A stretch of 64,000 nucleotides of DNA from an uncultured Syntrophomonadaceae bacterium (GTDB lineage Bacteria > Bacillota > Dethiobacteria > DTU022), in NCBI GenBank assembly GCA_964467475.1, contig CAYXQO010000002.1, forward strand, positions 57,787 to 121,786, given 5' to 3'. The translations under genes and the position numbers were made by a program. Every line of letters starts with the position of its first letter. The first letter of the stretch is position 1. Positions 4,237 through 49,680 of the stretch are shown here, in pieces. The notes below the pieces were generated by a model. It worked only from the letters and a program-made list of their open reading frames with translations, had not been told where the DNA came from and did not search any database.

Positions 4237-4289
4237 ACAATCCCTTATTTAAATACATTCGATTCCCTGCGAATTCGACAGGATTTTGT

Positions 4290-9758: not shown

Positions 9759-9782
9759 CAGCTTTCCTCTCCTGTCAACCGG

Positions 9783-12524: not shown

Positions 12525-12551
12525 AATTAGCCCCCCTAATATAAATCAATA

Positions 12552-12568
12552 CCGGTAAATTACCGGTG
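12552..12568 (-). terminator. Palindromic hairpin downstream of deoC, candidate intrinsic terminator.
   Basis: The sequence ACCGGTAAATTACCGGT is a perfect palindrome, followed on the minus strand by a T-rich tract (ATTGATTTATATT). Confidence 0.3.
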
Positions 12569-12629
12569 TAGTTTAATCTTCATATGTATTTTAGACCAGT
12601 GCAGTCTCCCTGTCAAAAAGAAAATTAAG

Positions 12630-13286: not shown

Positions 13287-13294
13287 CTACTTTC

Positions 13295-14609: not shown

Positions 14610-14630
14610 GGTAAACCTCCCTCTCACTTA

Positions 14631-15215: not shown

Positions 15216-15330
15216 CCCATCTCTCCTCTCTTTTCATTTGACCGGATACCTTTCCCACATTAACGACCAGGCACCGGTATTTAAAATAGATATTTCGCCG
15301 CAGAAACTGCTTTTCCTTGTTCGAGCATAA

Positions 15331-15371
15331 CAAAACCCGGTCCGGTTTGTTGACCGGAACCGGGTTTTTTT
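15331..15371 (-). terminator. Intrinsic terminator downstream of the Asp23 gene.
   Basis: A GC-rich near-perfect hairpin (AACCCGGTCCGG ... CCGGAACCGGGTT) has U-runs on both sides. Confidence 0.55.
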
Positions 15372-15406
15372 ACCCAGTAATATATCAGTTTAATCAGGCA
15401 ATTATA

Positions 15407-15889
15407 TTACTTGCCTTCCTCTTTGCCTTGCTCCTTCTCTTCTCCGCCACCTTCTTCTTCGGGAACATTAATTCCCTGGACGTTGATATTGATGGCTTCC
15501 ACCGTCAAGCCGGTGGTTTTTTCAACATTATTGCGAATTTCTTTCTTCAGTTTGTCCGTGGTATCAACTATAGATTTGCCATACTCCACAATAACATTTA
15601 ATTCTATGGTAATCCGGTCTTCATTAACGTCTACCCTGATACCCCTGGTCATATCCTTGCGGCCCAATCTTTCAGCAATCCCGCCGACTACTCCACCGCT
15701 CATACCGGCAATGCCCGGGATATCGCTGGAAATTATACTGGTAATTACCGCAATAACATCCGAAGAAATCCTGATACTGTCTTCTTCCTTAGATGGATCC
15801 GGTTTTAAAACAGCTTCGTCTGCTCCACCTGTTTTTCCTGCTTTACCTTCCGCTTTACCTTGATTTGCTTTTTTTTCTTCTTCAGCCAT
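15407..15889 (-). CDS. Asp23/Gls24 family (alkaline shock protein-like) protein.
   Basis: It has a DUF322 core (ISSDVIAVITSI ... GGVVGGIAERLG) with acidic, Lys-rich termini. It has its own TTGACA-17-TACAAT promoter at about 15995-16023. Confidence 0.7.
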   Translation of the reverse strand: MAEEEKKANQGKAEGKAGKTGGADEAVLKPDPSKEEDSIRISSDVIAVITSIISSDIPGIAGMSGGVVGGIAERLGRKDMTRGIRVDVNEDRITIELNVIVEYGKSIVDTTDKLKKEIRNNVEKTTGLTVEAININVQGINVPEEEGGGEEKEQGKEEGK

Positions 15890-15925
15890 TTAATTTCCTC
15901 CTTTCAAATATATATCTGGAAATTT

Positions 15926-15947
15926 AAAACCAGTGAGTACTGGTTTT
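15926..15947 (-). terminator. Hairpin between leuS and the Asp23 gene; leuS terminator or 5'-UTR element.
   Basis: The sequence AAAACCAGT-GAGT-ACTGGTTTT is followed by a T-rich tract on the minus strand. Confidence 0.35.
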
Positions 15948-16111
15948 AAGATTAAAATACTTATCCTGATAAACCTGGGAAGATACTGCGTTAAATGACA
16001 AAGAATTTTTACTTTACTTTAGTAATTATTGTATAATCTGTTAGGATGCTTGTCAAGGGAATTGACCTTGATTTAATACAAATTCAAATTTTCTTCATAA
16101 TTTAACATGAT

Positions 16112-34650: not shown

Positions 34651-35721
34651 TTAGCGAAGTTCAATGATTTCTTCCAGGCCGCTCGAATACTCTATATCAA
34701 GCTCGGGGGTAACCAAGACTCCCTCTACCCCTTCTTTTTGTTCAATAATTTGCATCCCCTGTTCCCGGCCGAGCACAAAAATGGTCGTGGAAAGGACATC
34801 CGCCTCAAGGACAGAATCGGCGACGATGGTCACACTGGCCAATTCCCTCGCCGGCATTCCGGTTTCCGGGTCAAGGAGATGATGGTAATGAACGCCGTCT
34901 TCCTCAAAAGAGCGTTCATAGTCTCCTGAAGTAGCCACTGCCTTGTCAGAAACAGGAAGAACCGCGAGCATTTTCTGCTCCTGCCTTGGGTTGCGCACTC
35001 CAATACGCCAGGGGTCATCCTCGGGCCTACTGCCGATTAAACCAATATCACCCCCGGCGTTAACAAATGCATGTTCCACTCCATGGTTAGTAAGCACTTC
35101 CATTGCCCTGTCGACAATAAAACCTTTGGCAATACCACCCAACTCGAGAGCCATATCATCCTCAGGCAGGTAAACAGCAGAGTTTTTTTGATCAAGTTCT
35201 ATTTCCCGGTAGTCCACCAGGGTCAGCTTTTGATTAAGCTGTTCTTCAGAGGGAACCCGGTATTCATGGCCCAAAAAACCCCAGGCATCGGTCACAGGGG
35301 CAATTGTAGGATCAAAAGCACCGCCGCTTAATTCGGCATATTCCAACGCTTTTTCAGCAACGTAAAAAACCTCCGGGCTTACCTCCACCGGTTTTTGACC
35401 GGCCTTTTCATTCAAGTTGTAAATATCGCTGTTTTCCAGGGTGCGATCAAACAGGCGTTCCAGACGCTCCATCTCACTAAATACTTCTTCCTTGATCTGT
35501 CCGGCTCTTCTCTCCCCGGTAGTTTGAAAACGAATCTCAACCATAGTATCCATAGTCAGGTGGGTGTAATCATAAGTATTTACCGCATAAAAAGCATTAT
35601 AGTAAAAGTAGCCACCAAGAATTAGCAAGACTACTATGGGAACCATATAAATTGATTTAAGAAATCTATTGTTAAAAATTGCTTTTTTGCTGCTCATTTC
35701 TTGCTGATCTCGCTCGGACAA
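34651..35721 (-). CDS. apbE: FAD:protein FMN transferase ApbE, membrane anchored.
   Basis: It has the ApbE fold (DPTIAPVTDAWG, GGIAKG, TSGDYERSF ... HHLLDPETG) and an N-terminal TM anchor. Confidence 0.8.
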   Translation of the reverse strand: MSERDQQEMSSKKAIFNNRFLKSIYMVPIVVLLILGGYFYYNAFYAVNTYDYTHLTMDTMVEIRFQTTGERRAGQIKEEVFSEMERLERLFDRTLENSDIYNLNEKAGQKPVEVSPEVFYVAEKALEYAELSGGAFDPTIAPVTDAWGFLGHEYRVPSEEQLNQKLTLVDYREIELDQKNSAVYLPEDDMALELGGIAKGFIVDRAMEVLTNHGVEHAFVNAGGDIGLIGSRPEDDPWRIGVRNPRQEQKMLAVLPVSDKAVATSGDYERSFEEDGVHYHHLLDPETGMPARELASVTIVADSVLEADVLSTTIFVLGREQGMQIIEQKEGVEGVLVTPELDIEYSSGLEEIIELR

Positions 35722-35764: not shown

Positions 35765-37720
35765 TTACCGGCCATAATAAAAGATCACTACCATGACTGC
35801 ACCAAGTAATAATGCAAGGATCAATTGATCGAAGTTTAAATTCTTAGAGGTCCACTCTACCGGGTTGAAGCGAAGCCTACGCCTGATCTCCTCTTCTTCC
35901 TCTTCACTTCTTTCACCGGTGCTATCAGCCATTTTCCGCATCGCTTCTCCTGTTTTCAGGTAACCCTCATCAATGCTTTGATCCAGCTGCCTGGAACGGT
36001 CAGCGAAATGACGTGCAGCATCGCCGGTTTTACTGTATCCTTCGTCAATCGCCTGATCCAGGTAACGGGTACGCTCGGCAAGCCCGCGCCCGATTTCCGA
36101 AGAACGCTCAAAAGTTCTGTCAATTCCCCGGTCAAGGGTAGTGATATACTGGCAAAATTCATAAAGCCTCCGGCCTGATTTCATGTAGAGGTTATCTACA
36201 GAGGAATCAATTGTTGAACCGTACTGGCAAAACCGGTTATACATTCTTTGTCCCAGGGGCTTGAAAATGAGGTACTCCACACTAACCCAGGGTGGTAAAT
36301 GAATGCCTTTCTTAAGCAGGTTGGATAAATTTAAGAAAAGCAGCAGCCCGGCTATGCCAAGCTGTGAGGCACCCCAAATCCCGTCAAGGGTGTAAATACC
36401 GGTAACCTTCGAAGCATAAGGAATCAGGGGGGATATTAACTGCGGGTATATTCCCAGGATGATGCAAAATGCAGCTGTCCCAAGAATAGCCACCTGGCCG
36501 GACAAAGGTACTTTATTAGTTATTTTCGCTCGTCCTTTAATAAACCCAAAACCGATTAACTTACAAAATGAAGCTGCCGTGCCAATACTGGCCACCATTA
36601 ACATTATTTCAGCCGGTCCCATATCATAAAAAGCATATTTTAACAGGTACTTACTGACATACCCGTTGAAAAGCGGCATGCCGGCAATAGCCAGGGCCCC
36701 GACAATCCCGCCAAAAGTGACCAGGGGCATAGCTTTCCAAATGCTCTGCTTTTCTTTCTCCTCTTCTTCTGAATCCTCATGGATTAAATCATGCAAATCC
36801 TCTGTTCCCGTGGCATATAAAACCCCGCCCACGCTCATAAACAACAGCGCCTTATAGAGCATATGGTTGACCACGTGCAGAAGCGCTCCATCTGTAGCCA
36901 TTTCGGTCGCCAAACCTACCCCGGCAACCATGTAGCCCACCTGGCTGATAATATGGTAAGACAACAGTCGGCGCATATTATGCTGCAGCATCGCCATGGT
37001 TACCCCGGCAACTGCCATGGAAGCCCCCATGTACATGATCACTTCATTAGGGGGCAGCATCCGGGCAATAGCAAATACACCAATTTTCGTAGTCAACCCG
37101 GCAAGGATTACACTGGAAGGAAAATTAGCCGATGGATACCCGCGGGCCACCCACAAATGAAAGGGCAGAAAAGCTGCTTTGAATCCAAAGCCGAGAATGA
37201 AAAAGGGCAGCCCGGCCTGGGGCTGGGTTAACATAAAATTTCCGGCCTCTTGGAAATGAAGGAGAATCCCCAGTAATACGATTAACCCGCCAGCTAAGTG
37301 AAAGGAAAGAAAATATAGCCCGGCATAACTTGCCTCCGGGGTTTTCCGCAACAAAATCAACCCGGCTGTAGACAAAGTAAGCATTTCCCAGAAAATAAAA
37401 AGAGTAATAAAATTATCGGAAAACACAATTCCGATGGCACTGGCCAGAGCGGCCAGGGCAACGGCTTGTTCGCTTGGCTTAGATAGCTGAAGCCCGTAAA
37501 GCAGGGATAAAGAACCGACCAGGGTAAACCCAAGCACAGCTATCCTGCTGTAGGAATGTTCGTCAAAAGAGATCGGGGCCAGCACTGCATCGCCCAGCAC
37601 AAGCCGCCCCAGCTCCACACCGGTCCAATCGTAGTAGGCAAGGTAAAGCAGGGCACCGATTACACCCAGCATTAAAAAGTATCTTAAACCCCTCGGCCCT
37701 AACAGAACACCGGGGATCAA
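35765..37720 (-). CDS. Divergent MrpD/NuoL-like proton-pumping antiporter subunit with a long C-terminal extension.
   Basis: It has the PF00361-type 14-TM core, but the WLPDAH motif is replaced by HLWVARGYPSANFPSS. There is an acidic insertion (HEDSEEEEKEKQ). A C-terminal hydrophilic extension of about 170 aa holds three copies of a 25-aa repeat of the form LDxxIDEGYxKTGxAxR and ends in a single TM helix (NLNFDQLILALLLGAVMVVIFYYGR). Confidence 0.7.
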   Translation of the reverse strand: MIPGVLLGPRGLRYFLMLGVIGALLYLAYYDWTGVELGRLVLGDAVLAPISFDEHSYSRIAVLGFTLVGSLSLLYGLQLSKPSEQAVALAALASAIGIVFSDNFITLFIFWEMLTLSTAGLILLRKTPEASYAGLYFLSFHLAGGLIVLLGILLHFQEAGNFMLTQPQAGLPFFILGFGFKAAFLPFHLWVARGYPSANFPSSVILAGLTTKIGVFAIARMLPPNEVIMYMGASMAVAGVTMAMLQHNMRRLLSYHIISQVGYMVAGVGLATEMATDGALLHVVNHMLYKALLFMSVGGVLYATGTEDLHDLIHEDSEEEEKEKQSIWKAMPLVTFGGIVGALAIAGMPLFNGYVSKYLLKYAFYDMGPAEIMLMVASIGTAASFCKLIGFGFIKGRAKITNKVPLSGQVAILGTAAFCIILGIYPQLISPLIPYASKVTGIYTLDGIWGASQLGIAGLLLFLNLSNLLKKGIHLPPWVSVEYLIFKPLGQRMYNRFCQYGSTIDSSVDNLYMKSGRRLYEFCQYITTLDRGIDRTFERSSEIGRGLAERTRYLDQAIDEGYSKTGDAARHFADRSRQLDQSIDEGYLKTGEAMRKMADSTGERSEEEEEEIRRRLRFNPVEWTSKNLNFDQLILALLLGAVMVVIFYYGR

Positions 37721-37879
37721 TAACAGTGGTATGCCTATACCCGCTATAACAAATATGTCGATTTCTCATCACTCCATTACAATGCGATTCTGCTTAACAT
37801 TGTTGTAGTTGATATACTCGATAAAGTCAAGCATAGCATAATTTATTTTTTGTTTTACTATGTCTACTCGGCCAAAAAC

Positions 37880-39916
37880 TTAATTACCATAAGAAAATAC
37901 TATGAATAAGATAATTCCAAGGACAAACGCCAAGAGCAAGTTGTCAAAATTAAGGTTTTTAATATTCCATTGCTCCTGGTCCCACCAAAACAAACTGCTC
38001 CTGAACTGCTCCTGCAAACGCCGTTCCCGCTCCGGTCCTTTTCCGGTTATATAATATGCCGACTGGCCTGCTTCATCAAGTGACTGTTCTGGTATAAGCT
38101 CCTTTTCTCCTGGCACATGAGAATCCCATTCGTTCTCACTTTCACTGTGGTCATAAAATTGTCCCAGGGCCATGTCATCTATATTAACTTCACGAAAGAA
38201 AAATGACAGGACCAAACGCGGCAACGGTTGAAATATCAATCTTTGAATGCTTAACCAGGGAGGCGGTGTCCATTCAAACCAGCCTCTTGAAACTCCCGGC
38301 AAATAAATAAACAAAGATAATAGAACTACAACCAGCATCGCCTCCAGGGGATGCCATTCAAAAAACTGGAAGCTAAAGAGATAATCAATGCTGGATCCGG
38401 CAAAATCAAGCAAACGCGCAGCGGGCAAAATCAGCCTATCCAGGAGAAAGTTCGGGAAAATCCCGATACCAAGTACCAGGGCAGCAAAAATAATAATCAC
38501 AAAATTAACCGATGGCGGGATACGGTAATCCTGATCAAGTTTTTCCGGAACCGGCCCCAGAAAAACCCCCTGGAAAAGCTTTATAAAGTAGCATATCGTT
38601 AAAGCGCTGGTCACCATAAAAAAGCGCTCGGCTACATAAATCCCGTAAATATCATAATACTGGTGCGCCTCTAATAAAGAATCATGCACCAAAGTCTTGC
38701 TGGCAAACCCGTTAAATCCAGGTATTCCGGCAATCCCGAGGGCTGCGATAACAAAAGTAACTGCTACTACCGGCATTTTCCGTGCCATACCACCCAGGCG
38801 GGACAAATCCAGTTCGTGGGTATACATATAAACCACCCCGATCATGGCAAAAAGTCCGGCCTTAAATATGGCATGATTGGCAATATGGTACAGCGATCCG
38901 GAAAAACCCATCGTTCCTTCAGCCCCCATAAACATGGCTACGCCGATCCCTGTAACAATATAGCCCATCTGACTGATGCTGCTGAAAGCCAGGATCCGTT
39001 TGGCGTTGCCTTGTAAAATGGCCATTAAAGCTCCAGCCAACATGGTAATTATGCCAACCCACATCAAGATATAGCCCGAACTGAAAATAAATGACCAGTC
39101 AGCTTCGGAGAGTGCCCCTGCCGGCTGAAATAGCACCAAACTTACCCGCAGGATACCGTAAGCGCCCGCTTTGATCATGATCCCCGACAAGAGAGCACTA
39201 GCCGGTGAGGGAGCTACCGGGTGAGCCAGGGGCAACCAGATGTGCAGGGGAACTATCCCGGCCTTAATTCCGAAACCAACCATAAACAAAAGCAGGATGG
39301 CCGTTCGCTGATTGCCGATTTCTTCCAAAGCAGGGACCATATTGAGGTGCCCCACATTACCGTAAAGCAATAAAATGGCAAACAGTAGGGAAAGACCACC
39401 GATAATGGCCATGTACAGGTATAACGAACCGGCCTGCAGCGCTTCCTGGTTTTGTTTATGGATAACCAGGACAAAGGAACTGAAGGTCATTATTTCAAAA
39501 AAGATAAACAGGGAAAAGAAGTCGCCGGCAAATACTACACCTAATATTGACCCGAGGGTAAAGATAAAAAAACTGTAATAACGACACAGGTTGTGCTCAA
39601 AATCCATATAGGCAAAGGAAAAGATCGTGGCCAATACCCAGATCAAGGTAATCAGAAAAGCAAACGTCCAGCCGATTAAATCAATGTTGAAGTACAGGTT
39701 GAATTGCATCAGTTCAATCAAATCACAGCACACTTCACCGGCAAAGACCATCGGTAAAAGCCAGATAACACCGGCAAGAGAAAAAAGTGATGCAGAAAGA
39801 ACTCCAGCCTTGCGGATCAACATTTTTTCATCAGGGACAAAATAGAGCGCTATACCGGTTAACATGGGAACTATAACCAGAAACAACGGTATATAAGTGC
39901 TGAAGGTTACCTCCAC
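37880..39916 (-). CDS. MrpD/NuoL-like antiporter subunit with a C-terminal extension.
   Basis: It has the canonical motif (PLHIWLPLAHPVAPSPASALLSGIMIKAGAYG). A C-terminal extension of about 200 aa ends in a TM helix (NLNFDNLLLAFVLGIILFIVFSYGN) homologous to the terminal helix of the downstream paralogue. Confidence 0.75.
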   Translation of the reverse strand: MEVTFSTYIPLFLVIVPMLTGIALYFVPDEKMLIRKAGVLSASLFSLAGVIWLLPMVFAGEVCCDLIELMQFNLYFNIDLIGWTFAFLITLIWVLATIFSFAYMDFEHNLCRYYSFFIFTLGSILGVVFAGDFFSLFIFFEIMTFSSFVLVIHKQNQEALQAGSLYLYMAIIGGLSLLFAILLLYGNVGHLNMVPALEEIGNQRTAILLLFMVGFGIKAGIVPLHIWLPLAHPVAPSPASALLSGIMIKAGAYGILRVSLVLFQPAGALSEADWSFIFSSGYILMWVGIITMLAGALMAILQGNAKRILAFSSISQMGYIVTGIGVAMFMGAEGTMGFSGSLYHIANHAIFKAGLFAMIGVVYMYTHELDLSRLGGMARKMPVVAVTFVIAALGIAGIPGFNGFASKTLVHDSLLEAHQYYDIYGIYVAERFFMVTSALTICYFIKLFQGVFLGPVPEKLDQDYRIPPSVNFVIIIFAALVLGIGIFPNFLLDRLILPAARLLDFAGSSIDYLFSFQFFEWHPLEAMLVVVLLSLFIYLPGVSRGWFEWTPPPWLSIQRLIFQPLPRLVLSFFFREVNIDDMALGQFYDHSESENEWDSHVPGEKELIPEQSLDEAGQSAYYITGKGPERERRLQEQFRSSLFWWDQEQWNIKNLNFDNLLLAFVLGIILFIVFSYGN

Positions 39917-39957: not shown

Positions 39958-41508
39958 CTAAAATATTCCCCCTTCCAAGAAAAACACAGTCGTAAGTTGA
40001 GATAAATCAAAGGGAATATTTAACGGCGTCAATCCGAAAATAAACGTGCATAATGCTAAAATTATCAGCGGAGCCAGCATTTTCGGGGTCGCATCCTGGA
40101 CTTTCAACTTAAGGGCAGATACTTGCGTTTGATTATGCCCGTGAGAACCTCCTTCGGCAGCCTCGCTTTCACCAATAATCTCGAAAAATGCCGGCACAAT
40201 GATCGGCAGATAATAAAGAGCATTCAATAGACTGCTAATTAAAAGGACCACAGCATATATAGTTAAATTGGCGTCAAGGGCCCCCAATCCCAGGGTCCAT
40301 TTACTCAGAAATCCACTTAAAGGAGGAATGCCGATCATAGCCAGGGCTGCTATGGAAAAACAGGCCATTGTATAAGGCATTTCCCTGCCGATGCCGCCCA
40401 TTTCCGAGATCTGCCTCTTTCCTGTCTTCCATATTATAGCACCGGCTGCAAGGAAGAGACAACTTTTCATGATTGCGTGGCTAAATATATGAAACATGGT
40501 CCCGGTAAGGGCATTCTCATTAAGAATACTCAAGCCTATAAGAACATATCCCATCTGCCCGACACTGGAGTAGGCAAGGCGGCGTTTAATATCATTCTGG
40601 GTTAAGGCCACAGCAGAACCCAGAAGGGTGGTGACCACCGCCAGGACCCCGAGGATTATGTCCCAATTATTCACCTGCATTATTTCAATCGAAAAGGCGT
40701 TAAAAACCACCCTGAAAAGCCCATAAGCTCCGGTTTTCAGCATTACTCCCGACAAAAGGGCGCTGGCCGGTGATGGAGCAACGGGGTGCGCATCCGGAAG
40801 CCAGACATGCAGCGGAAACATACCAGCTTTCATGCCGAATCCAATCACAAAACAGGCAAACGCCAGAAAGGAAAGGAAGGTGACTTCTTCGATAATAGAA
40901 CCTACCCCGAGTGAAACGGTGCCACCAAGCTCAAAAGTAATGATAATCCCTAGGAACAGAGCCAAACCGCCAATGATTGTCATCACCAGGTACTTGTAAC
41001 CAGCCTTTAAGGCCTGTTCTGTTTCTTCATGCACCACCAAAATATAAGAGATTAAAGACATTAATTCGAAAAACACAAAGAGGGTAAAAAAGTCACCGGC
41101 AAAGAATATCCCCAGGCAACTGCCGAGAGTAAACATCAACACCGGGTAATAACGGTCGCCTCCGTGCTCCTCGGCCATATAATCCAGGGAATAAATTGTG
41201 CAGAGGAACCAGATAAAGGAGGCAATTGCCCCAAGGCTAAAACTTAAAATATCGAGCCTGATCGAAATCTCCAGGTTTGGGAGAATTTCAAAAAGGGTCA
41301 ACTGGATTACATCGCCCCGCATCACTACCGGAAACAAGGAAAGGGTTAAAACAAAAGTGACTGCGCTAGTCAATAAAGACAAGGCATTTCTTAATTTATC
41401 CGAGCGGCCCCCGGCCGACATAATTACCGGGGTCATTACTATTGGAAATAAAATCACAAATAGTATTACCGCAATTGCTGTTGCTTCATCCACCGAAGCC
41501 ACCTCCAA
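39958..41508 (-). CDS. mrpD: MrpD/NuoM/N-like antiporter subunit.
   Basis: The 516-aa protein carries FPLHVWLPDAHPVAPSPASALLSGVMLKTGAYG. Confidence 0.8.
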   Translation of the reverse strand: MEVASVDEATAIAVILFVILFPIVMTPVIMSAGGRSDKLRNALSLLTSAVTFVLTLSLFPVVMRGDVIQLTLFEILPNLEISIRLDILSFSLGAIASFIWFLCTIYSLDYMAEEHGGDRYYPVLMFTLGSCLGIFFAGDFFTLFVFFELMSLISYILVVHEETEQALKAGYKYLVMTIIGGLALFLGIIITFELGGTVSLGVGSIIEEVTFLSFLAFACFVIGFGMKAGMFPLHVWLPDAHPVAPSPASALLSGVMLKTGAYGLFRVVFNAFSIEIMQVNNWDIILGVLAVVTTLLGSAVALTQNDIKRRLAYSSVGQMGYVLIGLSILNENALTGTMFHIFSHAIMKSCLFLAAGAIIWKTGKRQISEMGGIGREMPYTMACFSIAALAMIGIPPLSGFLSKWTLGLGALDANLTIYAVVLLISSLLNALYYLPIIVPAFFEIIGESEAAEGGSHGHNQTQVSALKLKVQDATPKMLAPLIILALCTFIFGLTPLNIPFDLSQLTTVFFLEGGIF

Positions 41509-41589: not shown

Positions 41590-43092
41590 TCAAAATAATA
41601 GCCCAATGGCATATTCCAACAAGTCCAAAGTAGGCCCGGGTACAACCCCGAAAAAGATGATCGCCGCTACACCGAACAGCAACGGAATCAGCATTTGCCG
41701 TGGCACCGGCTTGGCCACGTGTTCAAACTTTTCTTGGTACATAAAAGCGTTAACCACAATCGGCATATAGTATACCGCATTTAGCAAACTACTGGCCAGG
41801 ATAATTACTACAAAAAACGGCCGTCCTATTTCCAGGGCCCCGAGAGCCAAGTACCACTTACTGATTAACCCACCAGTGCCCGGTATGCCAATCATTGAAG
41901 CAGCACCAATAGTAAATGCGATCATGGTTACCGGTAAAACCTGCCCCACACCGGCAAGCTGTTTAATTTGCCTAACCCCGGTAGAATAAATAATTACCCC
42001 GGCAGCCATAAAAAGCATTGACTTCATCAGCGCATGAACAAGCAGGTGATAAAAACCACCCGTAAGTGCAATGGTATCGTCAAGCCCAATCCCCAGGAAC
42101 ACGTAACCAATCTGCCCGATACTGGAATAAGCCAACATCTTCTTTATATCTACCTGGACCATGGCAAAGATAGAACCAAACATAATTCCCGCTGTAGCTA
42201 ACCACAACACAATTTCATTTAGCGGGATTGAATCGAGTAAAGGCCGGGGAAATAGCTGGTAAAACATAATGAAAAGGGCAAAAGCATAAATTTTAATCAC
42301 GATTCCGGAAAGCATTGCGCTTGAGGGCGAAGGAGCCGAAGCATGTGCGTCGGGAAGCCAAACATGGAGCGGAAAAAGCGCCGCCTTGGTTCCAAAAGCA
42401 ACAATAAACAAAGCGGATGCGGCAAACATATTATTCGGATATTGTTCAACTGCAACCGGTAGCGCTTGATTCACCAGGTCATAATTAAACTGTCCGGTAA
42501 CCATGTAAAGCATGGCCACTCCTAATAAAAAACACCCGGTTCCCATTGCGCTTAAAATAAGATACTTAAAACTTGCTTCCAGGCAGGCGCGGTCTTCTTT
42601 AATCGAGATAATCGCGCAGGCTGAAATCGCACATATCTCCATAAGCACAAACAAGTTGAAAAGGTCATTCGTCATAGCAATACCGGCCATCGATCCAACT
42701 AAGAGGGCATATAATGAATAATACCAACCAAGCATTCCAATTTTTAGCTCATGTTGAAGGTCTTTTAAAGCGTAAACCATAATCCAGAGGCTTACCGCAA
42801 GAACTACCAGGAGCATATACGCCCTGAAATAGTCTACTTTGAACTCGACCCCGTAAGGAGGTTCCCATCCTCCCATATGGTAATAGATTTCCCCACCCTG
42901 ATGCACCTGGATTAACAGGGAAATGGCCATCACCAAAGCCAAAGAAAGAGAAACTAACAGCGCAGGAGCGCTAGCTTTCCTGGCCCAGCGATATAAAATC
43001 GGTGACAAAAAAGCAATACTAAATAAAATTGCTATAATTAATGCTGGAAAATGTTGTTCGAGACCCACTACTCCTGGCTCCTTATTAGGCAA
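41590..43092 (-). CDS. mrpD: MrpD/NuoN-like antiporter subunit.
   Basis: The 500-aa protein carries FPLHVWLPDAHASAPSPSSAMLSGIVIKIYAF. It overlaps the end of mrpC. Confidence 0.8.
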   Translation of the reverse strand: MPNKEPGVVGLEQHFPALIIAILFSIAFLSPILYRWARKASAPALLVSLSLALVMAISLLIQVHQGGEIYYHMGGWEPPYGVEFKVDYFRAYMLLVVLAVSLWIMVYALKDLQHELKIGMLGWYYSLYALLVGSMAGIAMTNDLFNLFVLMEICAISACAIISIKEDRACLEASFKYLILSAMGTGCFLLGVAMLYMVTGQFNYDLVNQALPVAVEQYPNNMFAASALFIVAFGTKAALFPLHVWLPDAHASAPSPSSAMLSGIVIKIYAFALFIMFYQLFPRPLLDSIPLNEIVLWLATAGIMFGSIFAMVQVDIKKMLAYSSIGQIGYVFLGIGLDDTIALTGGFYHLLVHALMKSMLFMAAGVIIYSTGVRQIKQLAGVGQVLPVTMIAFTIGAASMIGIPGTGGLISKWYLALGALEIGRPFFVVIILASSLLNAVYYMPIVVNAFMYQEKFEHVAKPVPRQMLIPLLFGVAAIIFFGVVPGPTLDLLEYAIGLLF

Positions 43093-43436
43093 ATTTCATC
43101 GTAATCTACTGTCCCATAATAACGGTATATTTTAACAATTAAACTAAGCGCATAAGCGGTAATGCTGATAGCAACAACAATACCGGTAAGCATAAGCGAA
43201 CTCGGGAGGGGATTTATATAAAGGACTTCTTTGCCCTCCTGAACAATGGGCGCTTGCCCTCCATAGGTGTAACCGACGGCAACAAAAAGCAAAAATACCG
43301 AGGTGTCCATTATATTCATAGCGATTACCTTTTTAATCAAATTCGAATGGGTAAGCATAGTATGCATCCCGATAATAAAAAGGAGAATCGCCGCCATGTA
43401 ATAATAATTATGAAGAACTTTGATTAACATTTCCAT
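43068..43436 (-). CDS. mrpC: MrpC/NuoK-like subunit.
   Basis: The 122-aa protein has three TM helices and MrpC/NuoK-like sequence. Confidence 0.7.
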   Translation of the reverse strand: MEMLIKVLHNYYYMAAILLFIIGMHTMLTHSNLIKKVIAMNIMDTSVFLLFVAVGYTYGGQAPIVQEGKEVLYINPLPSSLMLTGIVVAISITAYALSLIVKIYRYYGTVDYDEICLIRSQE

Positions 43437-43437
43437 A

Positions 43438-43869
43438 TTAATCTTCCCCCTCGATAATGTGAAAGAAAAAGCTCACAATAGTGCTTGCTACCTTAAACCC
43501 GAGAAAAACTGTAATGATCATGATCGCACCAGAACTGAAAAGTTCTCCTGCTTCTCCCATGGGAAATCCGGCAGCCCGGTTGGCCAAAAAATGCCCTCCA
43601 ACCGCTACACTCACCAGACCGGTTAACACAAACCCGAGAGCACCGCCGCTTTCCAGGATGGAAGAAACATCTTCAGAAATCTGCCTGGCTCCCACTTCGA
43701 GGTTAAAAGACACGGCTAAAAGAACAAGGCTAGCGCCAAAAATTGCGCCTCCGGAAAAACCACCCCCCGGGGAAAGATGGCCGTGCAGCACAATATAAAT
43801 CCCATACAATTGAATAAACGGCACCACAAGCCTGCTGGTGATGCGAACAATTTGGTCTTCCAGGGTCAT
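43438..43869 (-). CDS. mrpB: MrpB/MnhB domain subunit (MbhF-like).
   Basis: It carries the MnhB signature HGHLSPGGGFSGGAI. Confidence 0.75.
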   Translation of the reverse strand: MTLEDQIVRITSRLVVPFIQLYGIYIVLHGHLSPGGGFSGGAIFGASLVLLAVSFNLEVGARQISEDVSSILESGGALGFVLTGLVSVAVGGHFLANRAAGFPMGEAGELFSSGAIMIITVFLGFKVASTIVSFFFHIIEGED

Positions 43870-43879
43870 CTACCCCCAT

Positions 43880-44218
43880 TTACGAGTGAGATTTCAGGGT
43901 GGCAACCACCGCGGCAATTGCCACGAAAAGCACCGTTGCTTCACCCAGGGTATCAAAAGCACGGTAATCAATAATTACGCTGCTGACTATATTAACTGCC
44001 CCGGTATCGGCAACCCCCTGCTCCATGTAGCGTTGAGGAATTTCGTTAAACACCGGATTGTTGGGATCACCGAACGGAGGCATCTCGGCAACTGTAAAAC
44101 TAAAGAAAAATCCAATCAGGCCGACAAGCAATATGGTGAATACGCCTCTTGCCTGAAGGCGGAGCAGGTAGCGCATCGCAAAGATAGCCGCGATAATAAT
44201 AAACAGAATGTCTTCCAC
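43880..44218 (-). CDS. MrpB N-terminal-like small membrane subunit (MbhE-like).
   Basis: It contains IIDYRAFDTLGEATVLF, the MrpB N-domain signature. Confidence 0.6.
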   Translation of the reverse strand: MEDILFIIIAAIFAMRYLLRLQARGVFTILLVGLIGFFFSFTVAEMPPFGDPNNPVFNEIPQRYMEQGVADTGAVNIVSSVIIDYRAFDTLGEATVLFVAIAAVVATLKSHS

Positions 44219-44242: not shown

Positions 44243-44503
44243 CTATTCAGCCCGCCTGGTTTTGCTGATTGTCGCGATCAACAGTAATGTAGTAACCCCT
44301 GTACCCAGGGCAGCTTCCACCATGGCCACATCCGGAGCGCTCAGCTGCTGCCAGATAATCGCCATGATTAAACCAAAAGAAGCAAACACAATTACCGCGC
44401 TGAGCATGTCACGAATCTGGGCTACAGCAATAGCACATACTACTAAAAACAATAGCAGCAAAGCATTCAACACTTCTGTAAGAACGTCAGTCATTAGAAT
44501 CAC
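44243..44503 (-). CDS. DUF4040 (MbhD-like) small membrane subunit.
   Basis: The 86-aa protein has two to three TM helices and the sequence SAPDVAMVEAALGTG. Confidence 0.55.
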   Translation of the reverse strand: MILMTDVLTEVLNALLLLFLVVCAIAVAQIRDMLSAVIVFASFGLIMAIIWQQLSAPDVAMVEAALGTGVTTLLLIATISKTRRAE

Positions 44504-44807
44504 TCCTGCCTATTTGAGGCTTGATTCCTGTCGAGTAAGCGACCCGGGCAATAACATGGGCTGCCGTCGGGTTGGTAATTAAAACAAAAATAATCAGTAG
44601 AGCAAGCCTGATCGCCACCGCCATTTCACTTTGCAGGGCAAGAGAAAGCAGCACCAAACCGGCTCCGAGTGTATCGCACTTGGAGGTGGCATGCAGACGG
44701 TTGTATACATCGGGCAGGCGCAGCAAACCTACTATAGCGACAACCAGGAAAAAAAGACCGATGATCATTGATATTATTGACAATATCTGCAAAATAGTTT
44801 CCAGCAT
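44487..44807 (-). CDS. mrpG: MrpG/MnhG subunit.
   Basis: It contains GLLRLPDVYNRLHATSKCDTLGAG, the PhaG/MnhG signature. Confidence 0.75.
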   Translation of the reverse strand: MLETILQILSIISMIIGLFFLVVAIVGLLRLPDVYNRLHATSKCDTLGAGLVLLSLALQSEMAVAIRLALLIIFVLITNPTAAHVIARVAYSTGIKPQIGRSDSND

Positions 44808-44815
44808 CGCGTTAG

Positions 44816-45097
44816 TTAATCCAGCGCCCCTTTCTCCAGGTACTTAGCCACTCCAATGGTGAAAATAAAACCCATTAAAGCGTAAATCATGGCAATATCA
44901 AGAAAGTAAACCTGTTCATAGATCCTGGCTATTAGGGTAATAATAATCAGGGTGTTTGTTGTAATGATGTTGACAGCGACAACCCGGTCAGGCGCCGTAG
45001 GCCCAGCAAGCGCCCTGATCATGGCAACAAATATTGTCAACATAACCAGGATAGCTCCTAACGGGAACAATATATCAAGGATTTGTTCATAAATCAC
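44816..45097 (-). CDS. mrpF: MrpF/MnhF subunit.
   Basis: The 93-aa protein has three TM helices and the MrpF-like sequence ALAGPTAPDRVVAVNI. Confidence 0.7.
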   Translation of the reverse strand: MIYEQILDILFPLGAILVMLTIFVAMIRALAGPTAPDRVVAVNIITTNTLIIITLIARIYEQVYFLDIAMIYALMGFIFTIGVAKYLEKGALD

Positions 45098-45591
45098 TAC
45101 TTACCGCCCTCCATATCCTTGAGCCTGGCCATTAGGTGCCAATCCTTTATTGCCTTGCCAGTTTCTTTGGTAAGAGCATGCACCAAAAAATCTTTTTCGT
45201 CGGCAAGGACTGTTAATGTGCCCGGACACATAGTGATAGAATTACCCAGCAGTGTACGGCTGCCCATGCTTTCCAGATCCACCTTTACCGGAACCAGGTT
45301 CGGATAGATTGGCATCTTCGGGTGTAAAACCAGCCAGGCAATCTGGAAATTGGCAATGAATATTTCTTTAATCAAAATAAGTAGATACCCGATCAACCAG
45401 AAAACATTCTTTATTGTAACCGGAGGCCTGTCCCGGTCCCCAATCAAAAGGTTCCGGTTGAAATAAACCACAAATACAGACGATACAAAACCGACGATGA
45501 GTTGCGGAATGTCAAAAGAACTACTCACGGCAACCCAAAAAGCAATAAAAATTAGGGTAAAACCAATATAATTCAGCCAATCTTTTTTCAT
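45097..45591 (-). CDS. mrpE: MrpE/MnhE subunit.
   Basis: The 164-aa MnhE-like protein has two N-terminal TM helices and a soluble C-terminal domain. Confidence 0.7.
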   Translation of the reverse strand: MKKDWLNYIGFTLIFIAFWVAVSSSFDIPQLIVGFVSSVFVVYFNRNLLIGDRDRPPVTIKNVFWLIGYLLILIKEIFIANFQIAWLVLHPKMPIYPNLVPVKVDLESMGSRTLLGNSITMCPGTLTVLADEKDFLVHALTKETGKAIKDWHLMARLKDMEGGK

Positions 45592-45667: not shown

Positions 45668-46573
45668 CTAAACGCTTTTGCCCGAAGACGTTGCTTTTGC
45701 CGGTTCTTCATCTGCTTCCTTACCTTCATCCGGCATAATCGGTAGTACTGTCCGCGGATATATTGTTCCCGGTGGGCAAACCGGAACACATTTGCCGCAG
45801 TCGTCGCATTTATCAATATCAATAACCGCAAGCCTGTCATCCATCTCAATCGCTTCCTGGGGACATTCTTTGACACAAGCCCGGCAGCCAATACAGCCCA
45901 CGGTACATGCTTTAGAAACTGTTTTGCCCCGATCATGGGAACTGCACAGGACCAGATGCCCCTGGCCTGAACGGCGGGGTAAAGTTTTCAACAAATCCCT
46001 GGGGCATGCCTCTACACACAGCCCACAACCGGTGCAAGCTTCCGGGTCGACAATCGGCAGACCATGCGAACCGATTTCTATTGCTTCAAACGGGCAGACC
46101 CTAACACAGTTACCCAAACCAAGACAGCCATAACCGCAAGCTTTAAAGCCCCCGTTGAATTTGCCGGCCACCTCACAGTCTTGAACCCCGTCATATATGA
46201 ACAAATCAGCTGCTTTTTTATTATCCCCAATACAGAAAAGTGTAGCTATAAGCGGTTCCGAGTCGTCTACTTCAAGACCCAGCTCTTCAGCGATAGCCCG
46301 GGTGGTTTCTTCCCCGCCGGGTATACATGCATTAGCTGCTGCTTCCCCTTTAACAACCGCCGCCGCAAAATTAACACAACCGGCATAACCGCAAGCTCCA
46401 CAATTAGCTCCGGGTAATATATCATTAACTGCATCCACTCTCGGATCAGTTTTTACCGCAAAAACCCGTGCTGCAATAGATAACAGCAGCCCAAAAAGAA
46501 GGCCGATTAACCCTAAAGCAACAATTGCATATGCTATCTGCACGTTCCAACTCACCTCACCCATATTTAACAA
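45668..46573 (-). CDS. rnfB: Rnf complex subunit B (polyferredoxin).
   Basis: It has an N-terminal TM helix followed by multiple CxxCxxCxxxCP [4Fe-4S] motifs. The likely start is MGEVS. Confidence 0.85.
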   Translation of the reverse strand: MLNMGEVSWNVQIAYAIVALGLIGLLFGLLLSIAARVFAVKTDPRVDAVNDILPGANCGACGYAGCVNFAAAVVKGEAAANACIPGGEETTRAIAEELGLEVDDSEPLIATLFCIGDNKKAADLFIYDGVQDCEVAGKFNGGFKACGYGCLGLGNCVRVCPFEAIEIGSHGLPIVDPEACTGCGLCVEACPRDLLKTLPRRSGQGHLVLCSSHDRGKTVSKACTVGCIGCRACVKECPQEAIEMDDRLAVIDIDKCDDCGKCVPVCPPGTIYPRTVLPIMPDEGKEADEEPAKATSSGKSV

Positions 46574-46585
46574 TAAATTCTTCGC

Positions 46586-47167
46586 TTAGAGCGTTAGCAT
46601 TCCCTTAAAGCCAAGGAAGGCCAACGACAATATACCGGCAGTAATTAAAGTGACCGCGGAACCCTGCAGAGCTTCCGGAATTTTTGCCATCTCCAATCTT
46701 TCCCGGATACCGGCCATTATTACAAGGGCCAGTGAAAAACCAATTGAAGCGGCAAGGCCAAAAACAACTGCTTCAACAAAAGTAAATTCTTCCCTGACAG
46801 CAAGCACCGCAACCCCCATAATCGCACAATTCGTGGTAATTAAAGGTAAAAAGATCCCCAGGCCCTGGTACAGGGTAGGACTTATTTTACGCATCGCTGT
46901 TTCAACCAGTTGAACCAGGGAGGCAATAACCAAAATGAAAGTTACAATCTGTAAGTATTCCAGTTGATATGGCATTAATACAAAAGTATAAAGAATCCAG
47001 GTTACAATTGTGGCCATAGTCATGACAAAAATTACAGCCATGCTCATGCCTATCGCTGTTTCCATTTTACGAGAAACCCCGATAAACGGGCATATCCCCA
47101 GGAAACGTTGCAAAACAAAATTATCAACCAAAATATAGATAAAAATTATTGCCAGCAGTCTTTCCAT
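46586..47167 (-). CDS. rnfA: Rnf complex subunit A.
   Basis: It is an RnfA/NqrE-type six-TM protein (FLGICPFIGVSRK). Confidence 0.85.
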   Translation of the reverse strand: MERLLAIIFIYILVDNFVLQRFLGICPFIGVSRKMETAIGMSMAVIFVMTMATIVTWILYTFVLMPYQLEYLQIVTFILVIASLVQLVETAMRKISPTLYQGLGIFLPLITTNCAIMGVAVLAVREEFTFVEAVVFGLAASIGFSLALVIMAGIRERLEMAKIPEALQGSAVTLITAGILSLAFLGFKGMLTL

Positions 47168-47236
47168 AATAACCTCCTGCTACCGGTTATTTTATTTAAG
47201 TATTAATTTAAACTTTCAAGCTCATCCCGGTTTAAT

Positions 47237-47866
47237 TTATTTGATATTAAACTTCTTAAATATCACGTTAAAGATACCCAACAATAGTCCCAGGGCAATA
47301 AATGCACCCGGCGGTTGGGCAAAAAGGCCCATTGGTTCAAATTCTGGTCCAAAAAGGTGGACAGCACTTTCCGGGTCGGGCCCCATCAGGGTACCGTGTC
47401 CGGCAACTTCACGAACAAAAGATAATATCCCCAGGGCCAGGGTAAAACCAAGGCCAACCCCGATACCATCAATCAAAGAACGAAGTACCGGCTGTTTGCC
47501 TGCAAAAGCTTCGGCCCTGCCCAGTATAACACAGTTAACTACGATTAAGGGAACGAAAATGCCTAAAGCTTCATGAAGTGCGGGCTGATAAGCCTCTAAA
47601 ACCATATCAATTATAGTTACAAATGTTGCGATCACTACAATAAAGCAGGGTATTCGCACCTGAGGCGGGATAAATTGTTTGAGACTGGAAATCACCACAT
47701 TTGAAGCAACCAGCACTGCGGTTGCAGCAATTCCCATCCCCAGTCCGTTTATAAAAAAGGCAGTAACCCCCAACACCGGGCACAATCCCAAGAGTAATTT
47801 GAAAACCGGGTTTTCGCGAATAATACCCCGGGTTAAGTCTTGAATATAAACACTTTTATTATTCAT
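47237..47866 (-). CDS. rnfE: Rnf complex subunit E.
   Basis: It is an RnfE/NqrD-type protein (LLLGLCPVLGVT). Confidence 0.85.
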   Translation of the reverse strand: MNNKSVYIQDLTRGIIRENPVFKLLLGLCPVLGVTAFFINGLGMGIAATAVLVASNVVISSLKQFIPPQVRIPCFIVVIATFVTIIDMVLEAYQPALHEALGIFVPLIVVNCVILGRAEAFAGKQPVLRSLIDGIGVGLGFTLALGILSFVREVAGHGTLMGPDPESAVHLFGPEFEPMGLFAQPPGAFIALGLLLGIFNVIFKKFNIK

Positions 47867-48713
47867 CTAAACTGTCACCTCCACTGCCTTCTTCCAACGG
47901 TGCGCCGTTAAGAGCATTTTCCACGGCAAATATTATCCTTTCAGCGCTTAATGTAGCTCCGGTTTGCGTATCTACATTAAGGCTCTGTTCTTCTATAATT
48001 CTTTCTGGAATTAAAGGATAAGATTCAACAAAATAAGCATCGGTTTCATGCTGTTCAACAATCTCAATCCGATTAATTATGCCATTTAAAACTTCAACCT
48101 CGGCTGTCAATATACCCCTGGTTCCTTCCACACTGCCAAGGTATACACCGTCATCCACGGAAGGAAGGTTCAAACCAGCTCCTTCCTTATCCAGGAAGTT
48201 TTCACCAATAGTAATTACCGTGCGTCGCACAGAACTGATCACCGAACCGGTGCTTTCCGTCGCTCCACTGACAGTATCAACATCTTCACCGGCCTGGATA
48301 GGATCCTCATAACCTTTGCCAATAAATTGCTCCTGGAACTCGTCGGTAGTAATCACGTCACCAATCCCGGGAGTTTCAGAATGCCCCGTAACTATTATCC
48401 CTTTGATCTCACCTTCATCATCTACCGCAAGGTTATAGGATATCTCACCTTCATACCCATAGGTGGTAACCGTGGCCATGATCCCCATCAAATTAGCATC
48501 TTGATCGTAAACAAGATCATATGTATCTCCGTCTATTTCTTCGGATTCATAATCGGCAAGCTCGGGAAAAAACTGTTCAAGAGCCTCGATATATTCTCTT
48601 TGCTCTCTTTCTTTAATAACCGGTTCGGTAATGTTGTGAATCCCGGTAAGAAGCGCAGCGGACATTACCGCAATTAGTGCCAGAACCATTGAAAGACGAA
48701 CAATATCACGCAC
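47859..48713 (-). CDS. rnfG: Rnf complex subunit G with two FMN-binding domains.
   Basis: It has an N-terminal TM helix and two FMN_bind-like modules. The flavinylation-type motifs are DTVSGATESTGSV and DTQTGATLSAERI. Confidence 0.8.
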   Translation of the reverse strand: MRDIVRLSMVLALIAVMSAALLTGIHNITEPVIKEREQREYIEALEQFFPELADYESEEIDGDTYDLVYDQDANLMGIMATVTTYGYEGEISYNLAVDDEGEIKGIIVTGHSETPGIGDVITTDEFQEQFIGKGYEDPIQAGEDVDTVSGATESTGSVISSVRRTVITIGENFLDKEGAGLNLPSVDDGVYLGSVEGTRGILTAEVEVLNGIINRIEIVEQHETDAYFVESYPLIPERIIEEQSLNVDTQTGATLSAERIIFAVENALNGAPLEEGSGGDSLDE

Positions 48714-49680
48714 TTTTTTTCACCCCCCCAAACTGCTGGGGTATTGTAAAGTTATCAATTATCGGGGTCACTGCATTCATCATTAATATAGCAAAGGAAA
48801 CCCCTTCCGGGTAGGTTCCCCATAACCTGATCAACATTGTAAACAACCCGCAGCCAATCCCAAAAATTAATCGTCCGGCAGGGGTAACCGGGGTGGTGAC
48901 CATATCAGTGGCCATAAAGATAGCCCCGATCATCACCCCTCCGGCAAGCACATGGAACAACCCGGTCAACAGATAATTCTCGTAAAACCCGCCTCCAAAA
49001 ATTGTCCCTAAAACAAAAACAGTGCCGATAAATCCGCCGGGTATACGCAAATCAATATGGCCCCGGTAAGCAAGCCATATTCCTCCGATAAGCAAGGCCA
49101 GGGAGGAAGTTTCCCCTAACGAACCGGCAATATTGCCAATAAATATTTCCGGCAAGCTGAAAGCCAGGGCCTCCTGGGGGGCAGCTAAAACAGTTGCCCC
49201 GGTAACAGCAGAAATATCGGCGGTCAGCGCAAACGGTTGGGGCATAGGCCAGATGTCACCGGCCATGTGGCCGCCCCAGGAAACAACCAGGATCGCCCGA
49301 CCAACCAGGGCCGGGTTGAAAATATTATAGCCTATCCCCCCAAAAACCTGCTTACCAATAATGATTGCCGAGGCTGAGCCCAGAACAACCACCCACCAGG
49401 GCACCACAGGGGGCAGGGTCATCGCTAAAAGCAACCCGGTAACAGCGGCGCTGCCGTCTCCCAGGATGTTGCGATTTTTAAGCCACAGTGCTTCAACCAG
49501 CATGGCAACTACCATCGAAAGGACCATAATCATAAGGGCACGGTATCCAAACAAAAGCACAGCCATCAGGGCAGCCGGGAACAGCGCGATTAAAACATCA
49601 AACATTATGCTTTGCACTGATTCGCTTGTGCGTATATGCGGTGAAGAAGATACGATTAATTTTTCGCTAATTACAATCAC
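48706..49680 (-). CDS. rnfD: Rnf complex subunit D.
   Basis: It is an RnfD/NqrB-type polytopic protein with a flavinylation-site context (SGATVLAAP). Confidence 0.85.
   Translation of the reverse strand: MIVISEKLIVSSSPHIRTSESVQSIMFDVLIALFPAALMAVLLFGYRALMIMVLSMVVAMLVEALWLKNRNILGDGSAAVTGLLLAMTLPPVVPWWVVVLGSASAIIIGKQVFGGIGYNIFNPALVGRAILVVSWGGHMAGDIWPMPQPFALTADISAVTGATVLAAPQEALAFSLPEIFIGNIAGSLGETSSLALLIGGIWLAYRGHIDLRIPGGFIGTVFVLGTIFGGGFYENYLLTGLFHVLAGGVMIGAIFMATDMVTTPVTPAGRLIFGIGCGLFTMLIRLWGTYPEGVSFAILMMNAVTPIIDNFTIPQQFGGVKKSA

Follow-up and report, generated by a model that had tools for sequence, protein, structure and literature searches.

The window analyzed here, a 64,000-nucleotide stretch from an uncultured Syntrophomonadaceae bacterium (GenBank assembly GCA_964467475.1, contig CAYXQO010000002.1, positions 57,787 to 121,786), encodes two antiporter-like proteins, D651 (651 residues) and D678 (678 residues), whose C-terminal tails each run ~180 residues past the 14-TM core. 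We consider it probable that an array of tandem 25-residue repeats in the tail of D651 is a lateral helix (HL) which braces a row of antiporter-like subunits on its cytoplasmic face and is anchored by a terminal transmembrane (TM) helix starting with NLNFD, and that D678 carries a segmented variant of this element. From the homology of the two tails, the repeat with its periodicity and one-sided conservation, the match of the fold to L-type subunits, and the presence of one array per gene cluster, we infer that the array lies on the membrane surface, which partners it contacts, and that it functions as a brace. It is a known device in a new form, namely, a modular tandem-repeat lateral helix that occurs once per complex, has been swapped between cores, and is located inside an rnf operon.

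An initial annotation of this DNA had proposed that two antiporter-like subunits possess long hydrophilic tails ending in a homologous TM helix. This was borne out, as the region it had assigned exactly brackets both open reading frames (ORFs) and homology between the tails is evident (BLASTP E=4e-12). Identity between them is concentrated in the PPW(V/L)S hinge and the W.(S/I)KNLNFD..(I/L)LA..LG anchor. In D651, the hydrophilic stretch between hinge and anchor (residues 479 to 626) contains 25 K+R versus 27 D+E, and in an alignment of 30 family members N627 and F630 of the anchor were invariant, while L628, N629, and D631 were conserved to at least 90%. In D678, two degenerate repeat units, IDDMALGQFYDHS and LDEAGQSAYYITGKG, flank a variable acidic, proline-containing linker (positions 38081-38152), and residues 554 to 653 have a net charge of -9. 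We tested the D678 connector as a regular lateral helix and rejected it, because it shows no 100-degree periodicity (z~0), contains five prolines, and gave zero matches to a hidden Markov model (HMM) of the repeat. Distant orthologues with a short extension that lacks repeats are as irregular in this part as D678 (z~1), and the irregularity of D678 therefore does not prove a loss of function.

The repeat HMM recognized four copies in D651, starting at residues 504, 529, 554, and 579 (i-E of 3e-6 to 7e-9 per copy), so that the 25-residue tandem repeat of the initial annotation is real but has one copy more than the three reported. The repeat consensus is [FLM]D(S/x)(A/S)[LIV][DN]xAYxK[ST]GxAA[RK]xLA[DE]Rxxx. 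The sum-of-pairs score of the D651 copies was 221 versus -125 ± 25 for shuffled sequences (z=14), and 0 of 5,000 shuffles reached 221. The repeat had also been described as visible in the DNA, but a clear resemblance at this level is confined to copies 3 and 4 (60% identity), whereas the other pairs are 32 to 44% identical (null, 26 ± 5%). Tandem Repeats Finder (TRF) reported no tandem repeat in the D651 repeat DNA, and a repeat scan detected only a 19-nucleotide core at 75-nucleotide spacing. The negative TRF result and the identities of 32 to 60% rule out a recent DNA duplication; as the DNA copies have diverged and the protein pattern has been kept, the repeats are old and have been maintained at the protein level. 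Among 267 related proteins, the spacing between successive repeat starts was exactly 25 residues in 467 of 515 cases. The HMM counted 0 to 7 copies per protein, most commonly 5, and up to 8 copies were recognizable when the sequences were read by eye.

Twenty-five residues correspond to seven α-helical turns. Over arrays of 100 to 226 residues, the hydrophobic moment gave one coherent peak at 100.0 to 101.0 degrees per residue (z=6 to 10 versus shuffles), and the D651 array is amphipathic at 100.5 to 101 degrees per residue (z=6 to 7; z=6.1 for the peak at 101 degrees). On a 25/7 helical wheel, the hydrophobic or small positions 1, 5, 8, 9, 12, 16, 19, 20, and 23 fall into one half, together with the conserved residues D2, D6, Y9, and G13, whereas the opposite half is variable and charged. 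The conservation of positions 1, 2, 5, 6, 9, and 11 to 13 is inflated because they were used to select repeat units; positions 16, 17, 19, and 20 were not used, and A16, R17, L19, and A20 reached 1.9 to 2.5 bits. Since the period equals seven turns, the hydrophobic face and D2, D6, Y9, and G13 stay on one side along the D651 array.

A long, nearly straight helix with this period could alternatively serve mainly for docking or tethering, either by pairing in a coiled-coil-like manner with another copy or by reaching a neighbor such as Rnf, which we regard as unlikely but as deserving consideration. The ratio 25/7, equivalent to 3.57 residues per turn, fits a heptad-hendecad-heptad (7-11-7) coiled coil, and one homologue gave a weak, sub-threshold match to MCPsignal (E=1.7e-5). 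The D651 periodicity of 100.5 to 101 degrees, and that of the arrays in general, is not the 102.9 degrees (3.5 residues) of a canonical heptad, and conservation is one-sided, as in a helix lying on a surface. Pfam searches of the extension at E≤10 returned only sub-threshold, coiled-coil-like noise (MCPsignal, tape-measure, PhoU) and no model for the region.

AlphaFold2 (AF2) models were obtained for D651 (alignment of 30 sequences) and for a 759-residue homologue, P0151 (50 sequences). Both cores were predicted with confidence. The extension of D651 was modeled as long helices comprising residues 481 to 561 and 567 to 599 between two TM helices, that of P0151 as long helices comprising residues 568 to 635 and 669 to 717 after TM15; both models end with the terminal TM helix, and in neither was a globular domain seen in the extension. 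When the D651 model was used for a Foldseek search, MrpA chains ranked first, and the structural alignments extended over 513 to 541 residues for L-type chains versus ~417 for M-, N-, and MrpD-type chains, which indicates that ~100 residues of the extension overlay the TM15-HL segment of the L-type chains. The combination of TM15, lateral amphipathic helix, and TM16 that defines L-type subunits is present in D651; in D678, its helix part is present only weakly (z~0). The NuoL/MrpA-like lateral helix and anchor that had been proposed for both proteins is thus upheld for D651 by the AF2 helices and the amphipathicity; D678 has the same TM15 and anchor, but its connector, with two degenerate units, is not equivalent to that of D651. 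The initial annotation had named a disordered or globular extension, or one consisting of lineage-specific low-complexity sequence, as findings that would speak against its proposal; the extension is non-globular and not of low complexity, and the module is conserved.

The L-type signature was not found in the cores. The motif H-x-x-T-M-V in helix VIII is confined to NuoL and MrpA (PMC4938563), whereas helix VIII reads SALLSGIMIKAG in D678 and SVILAGLTTKIG in D651, both with the Lys of the MrpD/NuoM/NuoN type (SG..IK.G) and with no His or TMV. Both proteins end at TM16 and thus lack the fused domain of full-length MrpA, i.e., TMH17-21 around MrpC. Their PF00361 cores with TM5 Glu, TM7 Lys, and TM8/TM12 Lys, identified in alignments, place them in the antiporter-like superfamily, and the nearest cores by sequence are those of MbhH, MbsH', MrpA, and MrpD. 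The best NCBIfam match of D651, NF009310 (PRK12668, Na+/H+ antiporter subunit D), scored 364.7 bits, below the cutoff of 564, and covered residues 41 to 530 but not the repeats. Judged by sequence, D651 and D678 combine a core of the MrpD type with a tail of the L type, which is also the case in MbsH'.

We compared 16 loci: the window, 14 rnf-linked clusters (L001, L003, L004, L081-L086, and L088-L092), and an orphan gene (L087). Exactly one full array was present in each of the 15 rnf-linked clusters, with three to six copies by HMM (three units by eye in L092). Between the hinge W and the anchor, the array-bearing subunits of the 16 loci have 149 to 234 residues; in the extra long-D paralogues (window, L001, L003, L082, and L088), the connector comprised 98 to 104 residues wherever it was measurable. 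The array is attached to a D651-type core in some genomes and to a D678-type core in others, and several clusters (L004, L085) have no long subunit besides the one with a D651-type core. The tails of the 762-residue protein of L090 and the 675-residue protein of L004 are 62% identical over 183 residues, their cores 25%. Tails that are alike on cores that differ indicate that paralogous cores have swapped the HL/anchor module; the tail behaves as a module at the level of the complex. The gene order MrpE-F-G-MbhD-MbhE-MnhB-MrpC-D-D-D(long) is widespread and was found in Deltaproteobacteria, Chloroflexi, and archaea, where the third, long D is of the D651 type (576 to 640 residues) and has TM15, an irregular connector of 70 to 90 residues, and a terminal TM helix. 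Given these widespread non-repeat tails, the TM15-extension-TM16 tail is ancestral for the third D subunit of such clusters in many phyla, and the repeat array is a derived expansion. A molecular ruler with one 25-residue unit (37.5 Å) per antiporter-like subunit was considered and rejected, as the W-to-anchor length showed no positive trend over the 16 loci, which contain 1 to 5 antiporter-like genes.

In the mechanism that we propose, D678 and D651 would be the "long" antiporter-like subunits of an Mrp cation/proton antiporter module of the split Mbh type, whose genes lie between rnfB and apbE, and would stand in for the N-domain of MrpA. Each would consist of an ion-translocating core of the MrpD/NuoM type followed by TM15, an HL on the cytoplasmic surface, and the anchoring TM16. 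The HL of D651, with its four seven-turn units, would present one continuous face over 119 to 146 residues, or ~180 to 220 Å at 1.5 Å per residue, and would run as a brace along the cytoplasmic face of the antiporter-like row, with the NLNFD helix pinning its far end. D678 retains TM15 and the same anchor, with a short, segmented connector of 100 residues. In complex I structures an antiporter-like subunit is ~40 Å wide, and the D651 helix would be roughly as long as an arm of four antiporters plus the small-subunit module.

Several observations weigh against this mechanism. Arrays of 200 to 234 residues would measure ~300 to 350 Å if straight, which is beyond the expected need of an Mrp arm with two or three subunits. 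Clusters with more antiporter-like genes do not have more repeats, and the longest arrays occur in clusters with two or three such genes. The array (mean Eisenberg hydrophobicity ~-0.2) is far more charged than a helix at the lipid interface, and the AF2 extension helices of D651 and P0151 have low confidence, with a predicted local distance difference test (pLDDT) score of 35 to 65. Finally, the orphan gene of L087, with 6 to 7 repeats, has no partner subunit genes nearby. As to the clamp role suggested in the initial annotation, a simple clamp sized to the complex does not fit the lack of scaling and the arrays of up to 234 residues.

Some of these points favor the docking or tethering function, in particular the arrays that exceed the need of one Mrp arm and do not scale with subunit number. 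Further arguments come from the genomic context. The array-bearing gene is located in an rnf-linked cluster in 15 of the 16 loci, including those of the cultured haloalkaliphiles Natranaerobius thermophilus (CP001034.1) and Natranaerofaba carboxydovora (CP054394.1); with the exception of orphan L087, arrays were found only in rnf-embedded clusters among the loci examined, and related Bacillota clusters that do not adjoin rnf had none or at most one unit. The rnf synteny is kept in 14 clusters other than the window whose upstream flank was readable; with respect to bracketing by rnfB and apbE, the stretch read for L084 contains no apbE, and the rnf side of L003 lies outside the flank. In L084 (positions 2995-12439), from a Bacillota metagenome-assembled genome (MAG), rnfCDGEAB is followed by just two antiporter-like genes encoding 495 residues and 812 residues, the latter with ~8 repeats; MrpE/F/G/B/C genes are absent from this locus, and its 434-nucleotide gap contains no plausible small membrane ORF. 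In the MBS complex, moreover, the HL of MbsH' makes a dimer contact (PMC7684303). On the other hand, a single array is encoded per cluster, common descent confounds the association of the array with rnf, to which L087 is an exception, and any contact between Rnf and Mrp is hypothetical. A more specific version, in which the array is a 220- to 350-Å tie-rod joining the Mrp-type module to Rnf in a supercomplex with Rnf replacing the redox arm of complex I, appears distinctly unlikely to us; such a supercomplex would be a ferredoxin:NAD+ oxidoreductase with attached antiporter-like pump modules.

The orphan gene of L087 (positions 10001-12349; Dethiobacter alkaliphilus) encodes a 782-residue protein of the D678 type with 6 to 7 perfect 25-residue repeats and has no Mrp or Rnf neighbors. 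It recalls Nt-Nha, a single-gene MrpA-like antiporter reported for N. thermophilus (PMC2764116). The N. thermophilus homologue P0268 was considered as the orphan Nt-Nha, but it is part of the rnf-mrp cluster.

The repeat region might also be a neutral, lineage-specific expansion in a connector that needs only to join TM15 to TM16. The module is rare, as a phmmer search of 1.84 billion cluster representatives with the D651 tail gave 32 matches at E≤0.001, nearly all of which were antiporter-like proteins or their fragments; the copy number varies from 0 to 8; and D678 and other paralogues work with an irregular connector of ~100 residues. Neutrality is nevertheless hard to reconcile with a period held strictly at 25 residues, with strong conservation of A16, R17, L19, and A20 outside the selection pattern, with a protein pattern retained in old and diverged DNA copies, and with the maintenance of one array per cluster despite gene duplication and exchange of the module between cores, and we judge it highly improbable. 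Among the phmmer matches, the 3,770-residue protein P0257 was found to be unrelated on inspection. P0258 and P0260, fragments of antiporter-like proteins from another lineage, contain a diverged array with the same 25-residue period (VDRGVDRT...A..A.R.V), which the repeat HMM misses, and a "NLNVATLL" anchor.

An HL on the cytoplasmic side that braces the complex is universal in the superfamily (PMC8165549, PMC7419157, PMC9568556). It links the TM7 helices in Mrp and complex I (PMC7419157, PMC9568556), and as a rule it is longer the more antiporter-like subunits there are (PMC8165549). The N-domain of MrpA (6z16_A, 7qru_A, 7d3u_A) resembles D651 and D678 in having a 14-TM-type core, TM15, a cytoplasmic amphipathic lateral helix, and TM16, and the partner set MrpB, C, D, E, F, and G of the Mrp antiporter is the same as in the window. 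In MrpA, however, the C-domain is fused and helix VIII has the H..TMV motif, whereas the window has separate MbhD, MbhE, and MnhB genes and subunits with the MrpD/NuoM-type Lys; the HL of the window array is several-fold longer than that of MrpA and built from 25-residue repeats, and the window cluster encodes two subunits with HL and TM16. NuoL, ND5, and Nqo12 share the TM15-HL-TM16 tail, but the core signature in the window is M/N-like, the complex I-type redox arm is missing from the window cluster, and the HL of complex I tracks subunit number, whereas the window-type HL does not and consists of tandem repeats. MbsH' (Pyrococcus MBS, 6u8y_X) and the HyfB/HycC-type subunits combine an MrpD/NuoM-type core (TM8 Lys) with TM15-HL-TM16 as in the window, and the split mbh-type order MrpE/F/G, MbhD, MbhE, MrpB, MrpC, D subunits is common to MBS-type clusters and the window. 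These subunits are bound to a NiFe-hydrogenase-type redox module and have a short, non-repetitive HL, whereas the neighbors in the window are rnf genes. N. thermophilus and N. carboxydovora have the order rnfCDGEAB-(moaC)-mrpEFG-mbhD-mbhE-mnhB-mrpC-D-D(long)-apbE as in the window (noted in PMC8359318), but with one long subunit (D678-type, 748 to 806 residues) carrying the array, compared to two in the window with the array on the D651-type. Co-location of rnf and mrp is mentioned in genome papers (PMC8359318, PMC10608574); in the searchable literature we found no description of a repeat-built helix, of a physical Rnf–Mrp link, or of a Na+(K+)/H+ antiport assay for this locus type.

The lateral helix is the single structural element common to complex I, Mrp, MBH, MBS, and FHL, and whether it is a brace or a coupling rod has long been argued. 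The clade described here provides a natural HL series of interchangeable seven-turn modules in 0 to 8 copies, one kept per complex and transplantable between pump cores, with which the effect of helix length and register on assembly and coupling can be tested directly. Given the location of the system within the rnf operon, it is conceivable, and can be tested, that an antiporter assembly linked to Rnf couples the Na+ and H+ cycles when the pH is high.

The initial annotation had further suggested that D651 is a non-pumping paralogue. Its two underlying observations are correct: the WLPDAH position reads WVARGY (residues 190 to 195, paralogue alignment), and an acidic insertion, HEDSEEEEKEK, is present at residues 314 to 324. 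Two loops of D651 are also shortened, and one N-terminal TM helix is missing; according to the DSSP assignment of the AF2 model, the N-terminal region (residues 1 to 55; positions 37560-37720, minus strand) has a single TM helix before the β-hairpin versus two in D678-type proteins, and with one TM helix fewer the N-terminus should face the opposite side. Moreover, the HL contacts the TM7 helices on the cytoplasmic side in Mrp (PMC7419157), and the change in TM7 could be related to the HL. A structural or regulatory subunit that mainly supplies the clamp is nonetheless very unlikely in our view. All four paralogues share E112 (TM5), K181 (TM7), K212 (TM8), K290 (TM12), and K357, which are also invariant in 30 family members with identities down to 44%, and neither the altered WLPDAH motif nor the insertion is peculiar to D651, as both occur throughout its clade; the 12-residue insertion after TM12 is found in all Bacillota D651-type proteins with variable sequence and is acidic in the window. 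In addition, the D651-type core represents the ancestral form of the long subunit for this kind of cluster in many phyla rather than a recent degenerate copy and is the sole long subunit in several clusters (L004, L085). Nothing in the analysis shows a loss of ion translocation in D651, and this claim must be regarded as unsupported. In distant D651-type orthologues from Deltaproteobacteria, Chloroflexi, and archaea (L024, L041, L045, L048, L052, L062, L064, and L079), Asn replaces the otherwise universal TM7 Lys and WLPDAY is retained, whereas the Bacillota clade shows the reverse combination of a retained TM7 Lys and a changed motif.

D651 and D678 are encoded by the final two genes of a tightly packed minus-strand cluster composed of rnfDGEAB, the mrp genes with four PF00361 genes, and apbE (Table 1). 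PF01899, PF04066, PF03334, PF13244, PF20501, PF04039, and PF00420 are contiguous at 45591-35765, as expected for a split Mbh-type Mrp (CPA3) cluster, and the four PF00361 genes complete this contiguous one-strand Mrp set according to Pfam. MrpA had been regarded as absent, but its C-terminal domain is encoded apart: by their matches to its successive parts, MbhD, MbhE, and MnhB are the split C-terminal domain of MrpA. The split arrangement, or "three mrpB genes," has been described before in anaerobes, among them Natranaerobius (PMC5703873). The entire Mrp-type cluster lies between rnfB and apbE, the latter encoding a flavin transferase that serves Rnf, and is followed by Hpre_diP_synt_I, maf, and radC. 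Promoter and terminator scans of the whole cluster revealed no internal signal above chance, and genes for a NiFe-hydrogenase-type (NuoB/D/H-like) redox module were found next to the cluster neither in the window nor in the rnf-linked loci that were examined, where the neighbors are rnfCDGEAB and apbE. Conservation of the order rnf–mrp–apbE in Syntrophomonadaceae, Dethiobacteria, and Natranaerobiia suggests co-expression of Rnf and the antiporter module, which are possibly also coupled physically.

Table 1. Features of the rnf–mrp–apbE cluster and of the D651 and D678 proteins
Feature	Position in window	Strand	Basis
rnfB, rnfA, rnfE, rnfG, rnfD	45668..49680	-	directly upstream of mrp genes, same strand
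MrpE	45097-45591	-	Pfam and NCBIfam matches
MrpF	44816-45097	-	Pfam and NCBIfam matches
MrpG	44487-44807	-	Pfam and NCBIfam matches
MbhD	44243-44503	-	Pfam and NCBIfam; matches MrpA models at ~600-690
MbhE	43880-44218	-	Pfam and NCBIfam; matches MrpA models at ~680-790
MnhB	43438-43869	-	Pfam and NCBIfam matches
MrpC/NuoK	43068-43436	-	Pfam and NCBIfam matches
D500, NuoN/MrpD-like antiporter-like subunit, no C-terminal extension	41590-43092	-	Pfam, NCBIfam, paralogue alignment
D516, NuoM-like antiporter-like subunit, no C-terminal extension	39958-41508	-	Pfam, NCBIfam, paralogue alignment
D678, antiporter-like subunit, 678 residues, core nearest D516 (38% identity)	37880..39916	-	PF00361 E=9e-59
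D678 TM15, residues 518-547	38276..38365	-	hydropathy; MrpA-chain alignment extends to ~residues 531-541
D678 hinge PPWLS and ~100-residue extension, residues 552-653	37958..38263	-	tail alignment, hydropathy
D678 terminal anchor helix, residues 654-678, NLNFDNLLLAFVLGIILFIVFSYGN	37883..37957	-	hydropathy, tail alignment
D651, antiporter-like subunit, 651 residues, MrpD/NuoM-type core and TM15-HL-TM16	35765..37720	-	PF00361 E=5e-39
D651 TM7 region HLWVARGYPSANFPSS in place of H.WLPDAHP.APSP of paralogues	37112..37159	-	paralogue alignment; common to the D651-type proteins of Bacillota
D651 acidic loop insertion HEDSEEEEKEK, residues 314-324, after TM12	36749..36781	-	gap versus MbhH and versus paralogues
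D651 TM15, residues 445-471, leading from core to lateral helix	36308..36388	-	AF2 DSSP helix H445-471; hydropathy
D651 hinge PPWVS (residues 476-480) and 25-residue pre-repeat segment (residues 479-503)	36212..36295	-	motif common to D678 and homologues
D651 four tandem 25-residue repeats, residues 504-603	35912..36211	-	repeat HMM, shuffle test, hydrophobic moment
D651 repeat copies 1-4	36137-36211, 36062-36136, 35987-36061, 35912-35986	-	repeat HMM
D651 charged linker, residues 604-626, EEEEEE run then RRRLRFNPVEWTSK	35843..35911	-	sequence, hydropathy
D651 terminal anchor helix, TM16 equivalent, residues 627-651, begins NLNFD	35768..35842	-	hydropathy 2.26; AF2 helix H630-650
apbE, flavin transferase	34651..35721	-	PF02424, E=2.7e-93; 43 nucleotides downstream of D651

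The genomes nearest to that of the window are Syntrophomonadaceae MAGs from soda-lake sediments (79 to 82% identity). Seven of the compared clusters (L082, L083, L086, L088-L090, and L092) have an inserted moaC gene between rnfB and mrpE, which the window lacks. In two clusters, L003 (positions 5612-11962) and L088 (positions 10001-16552), five antiporter-like genes follow one another, and the TM16 anchor is present in three of the five; their membrane arms would accordingly exceed in length those of every solved complex of the superfamily.

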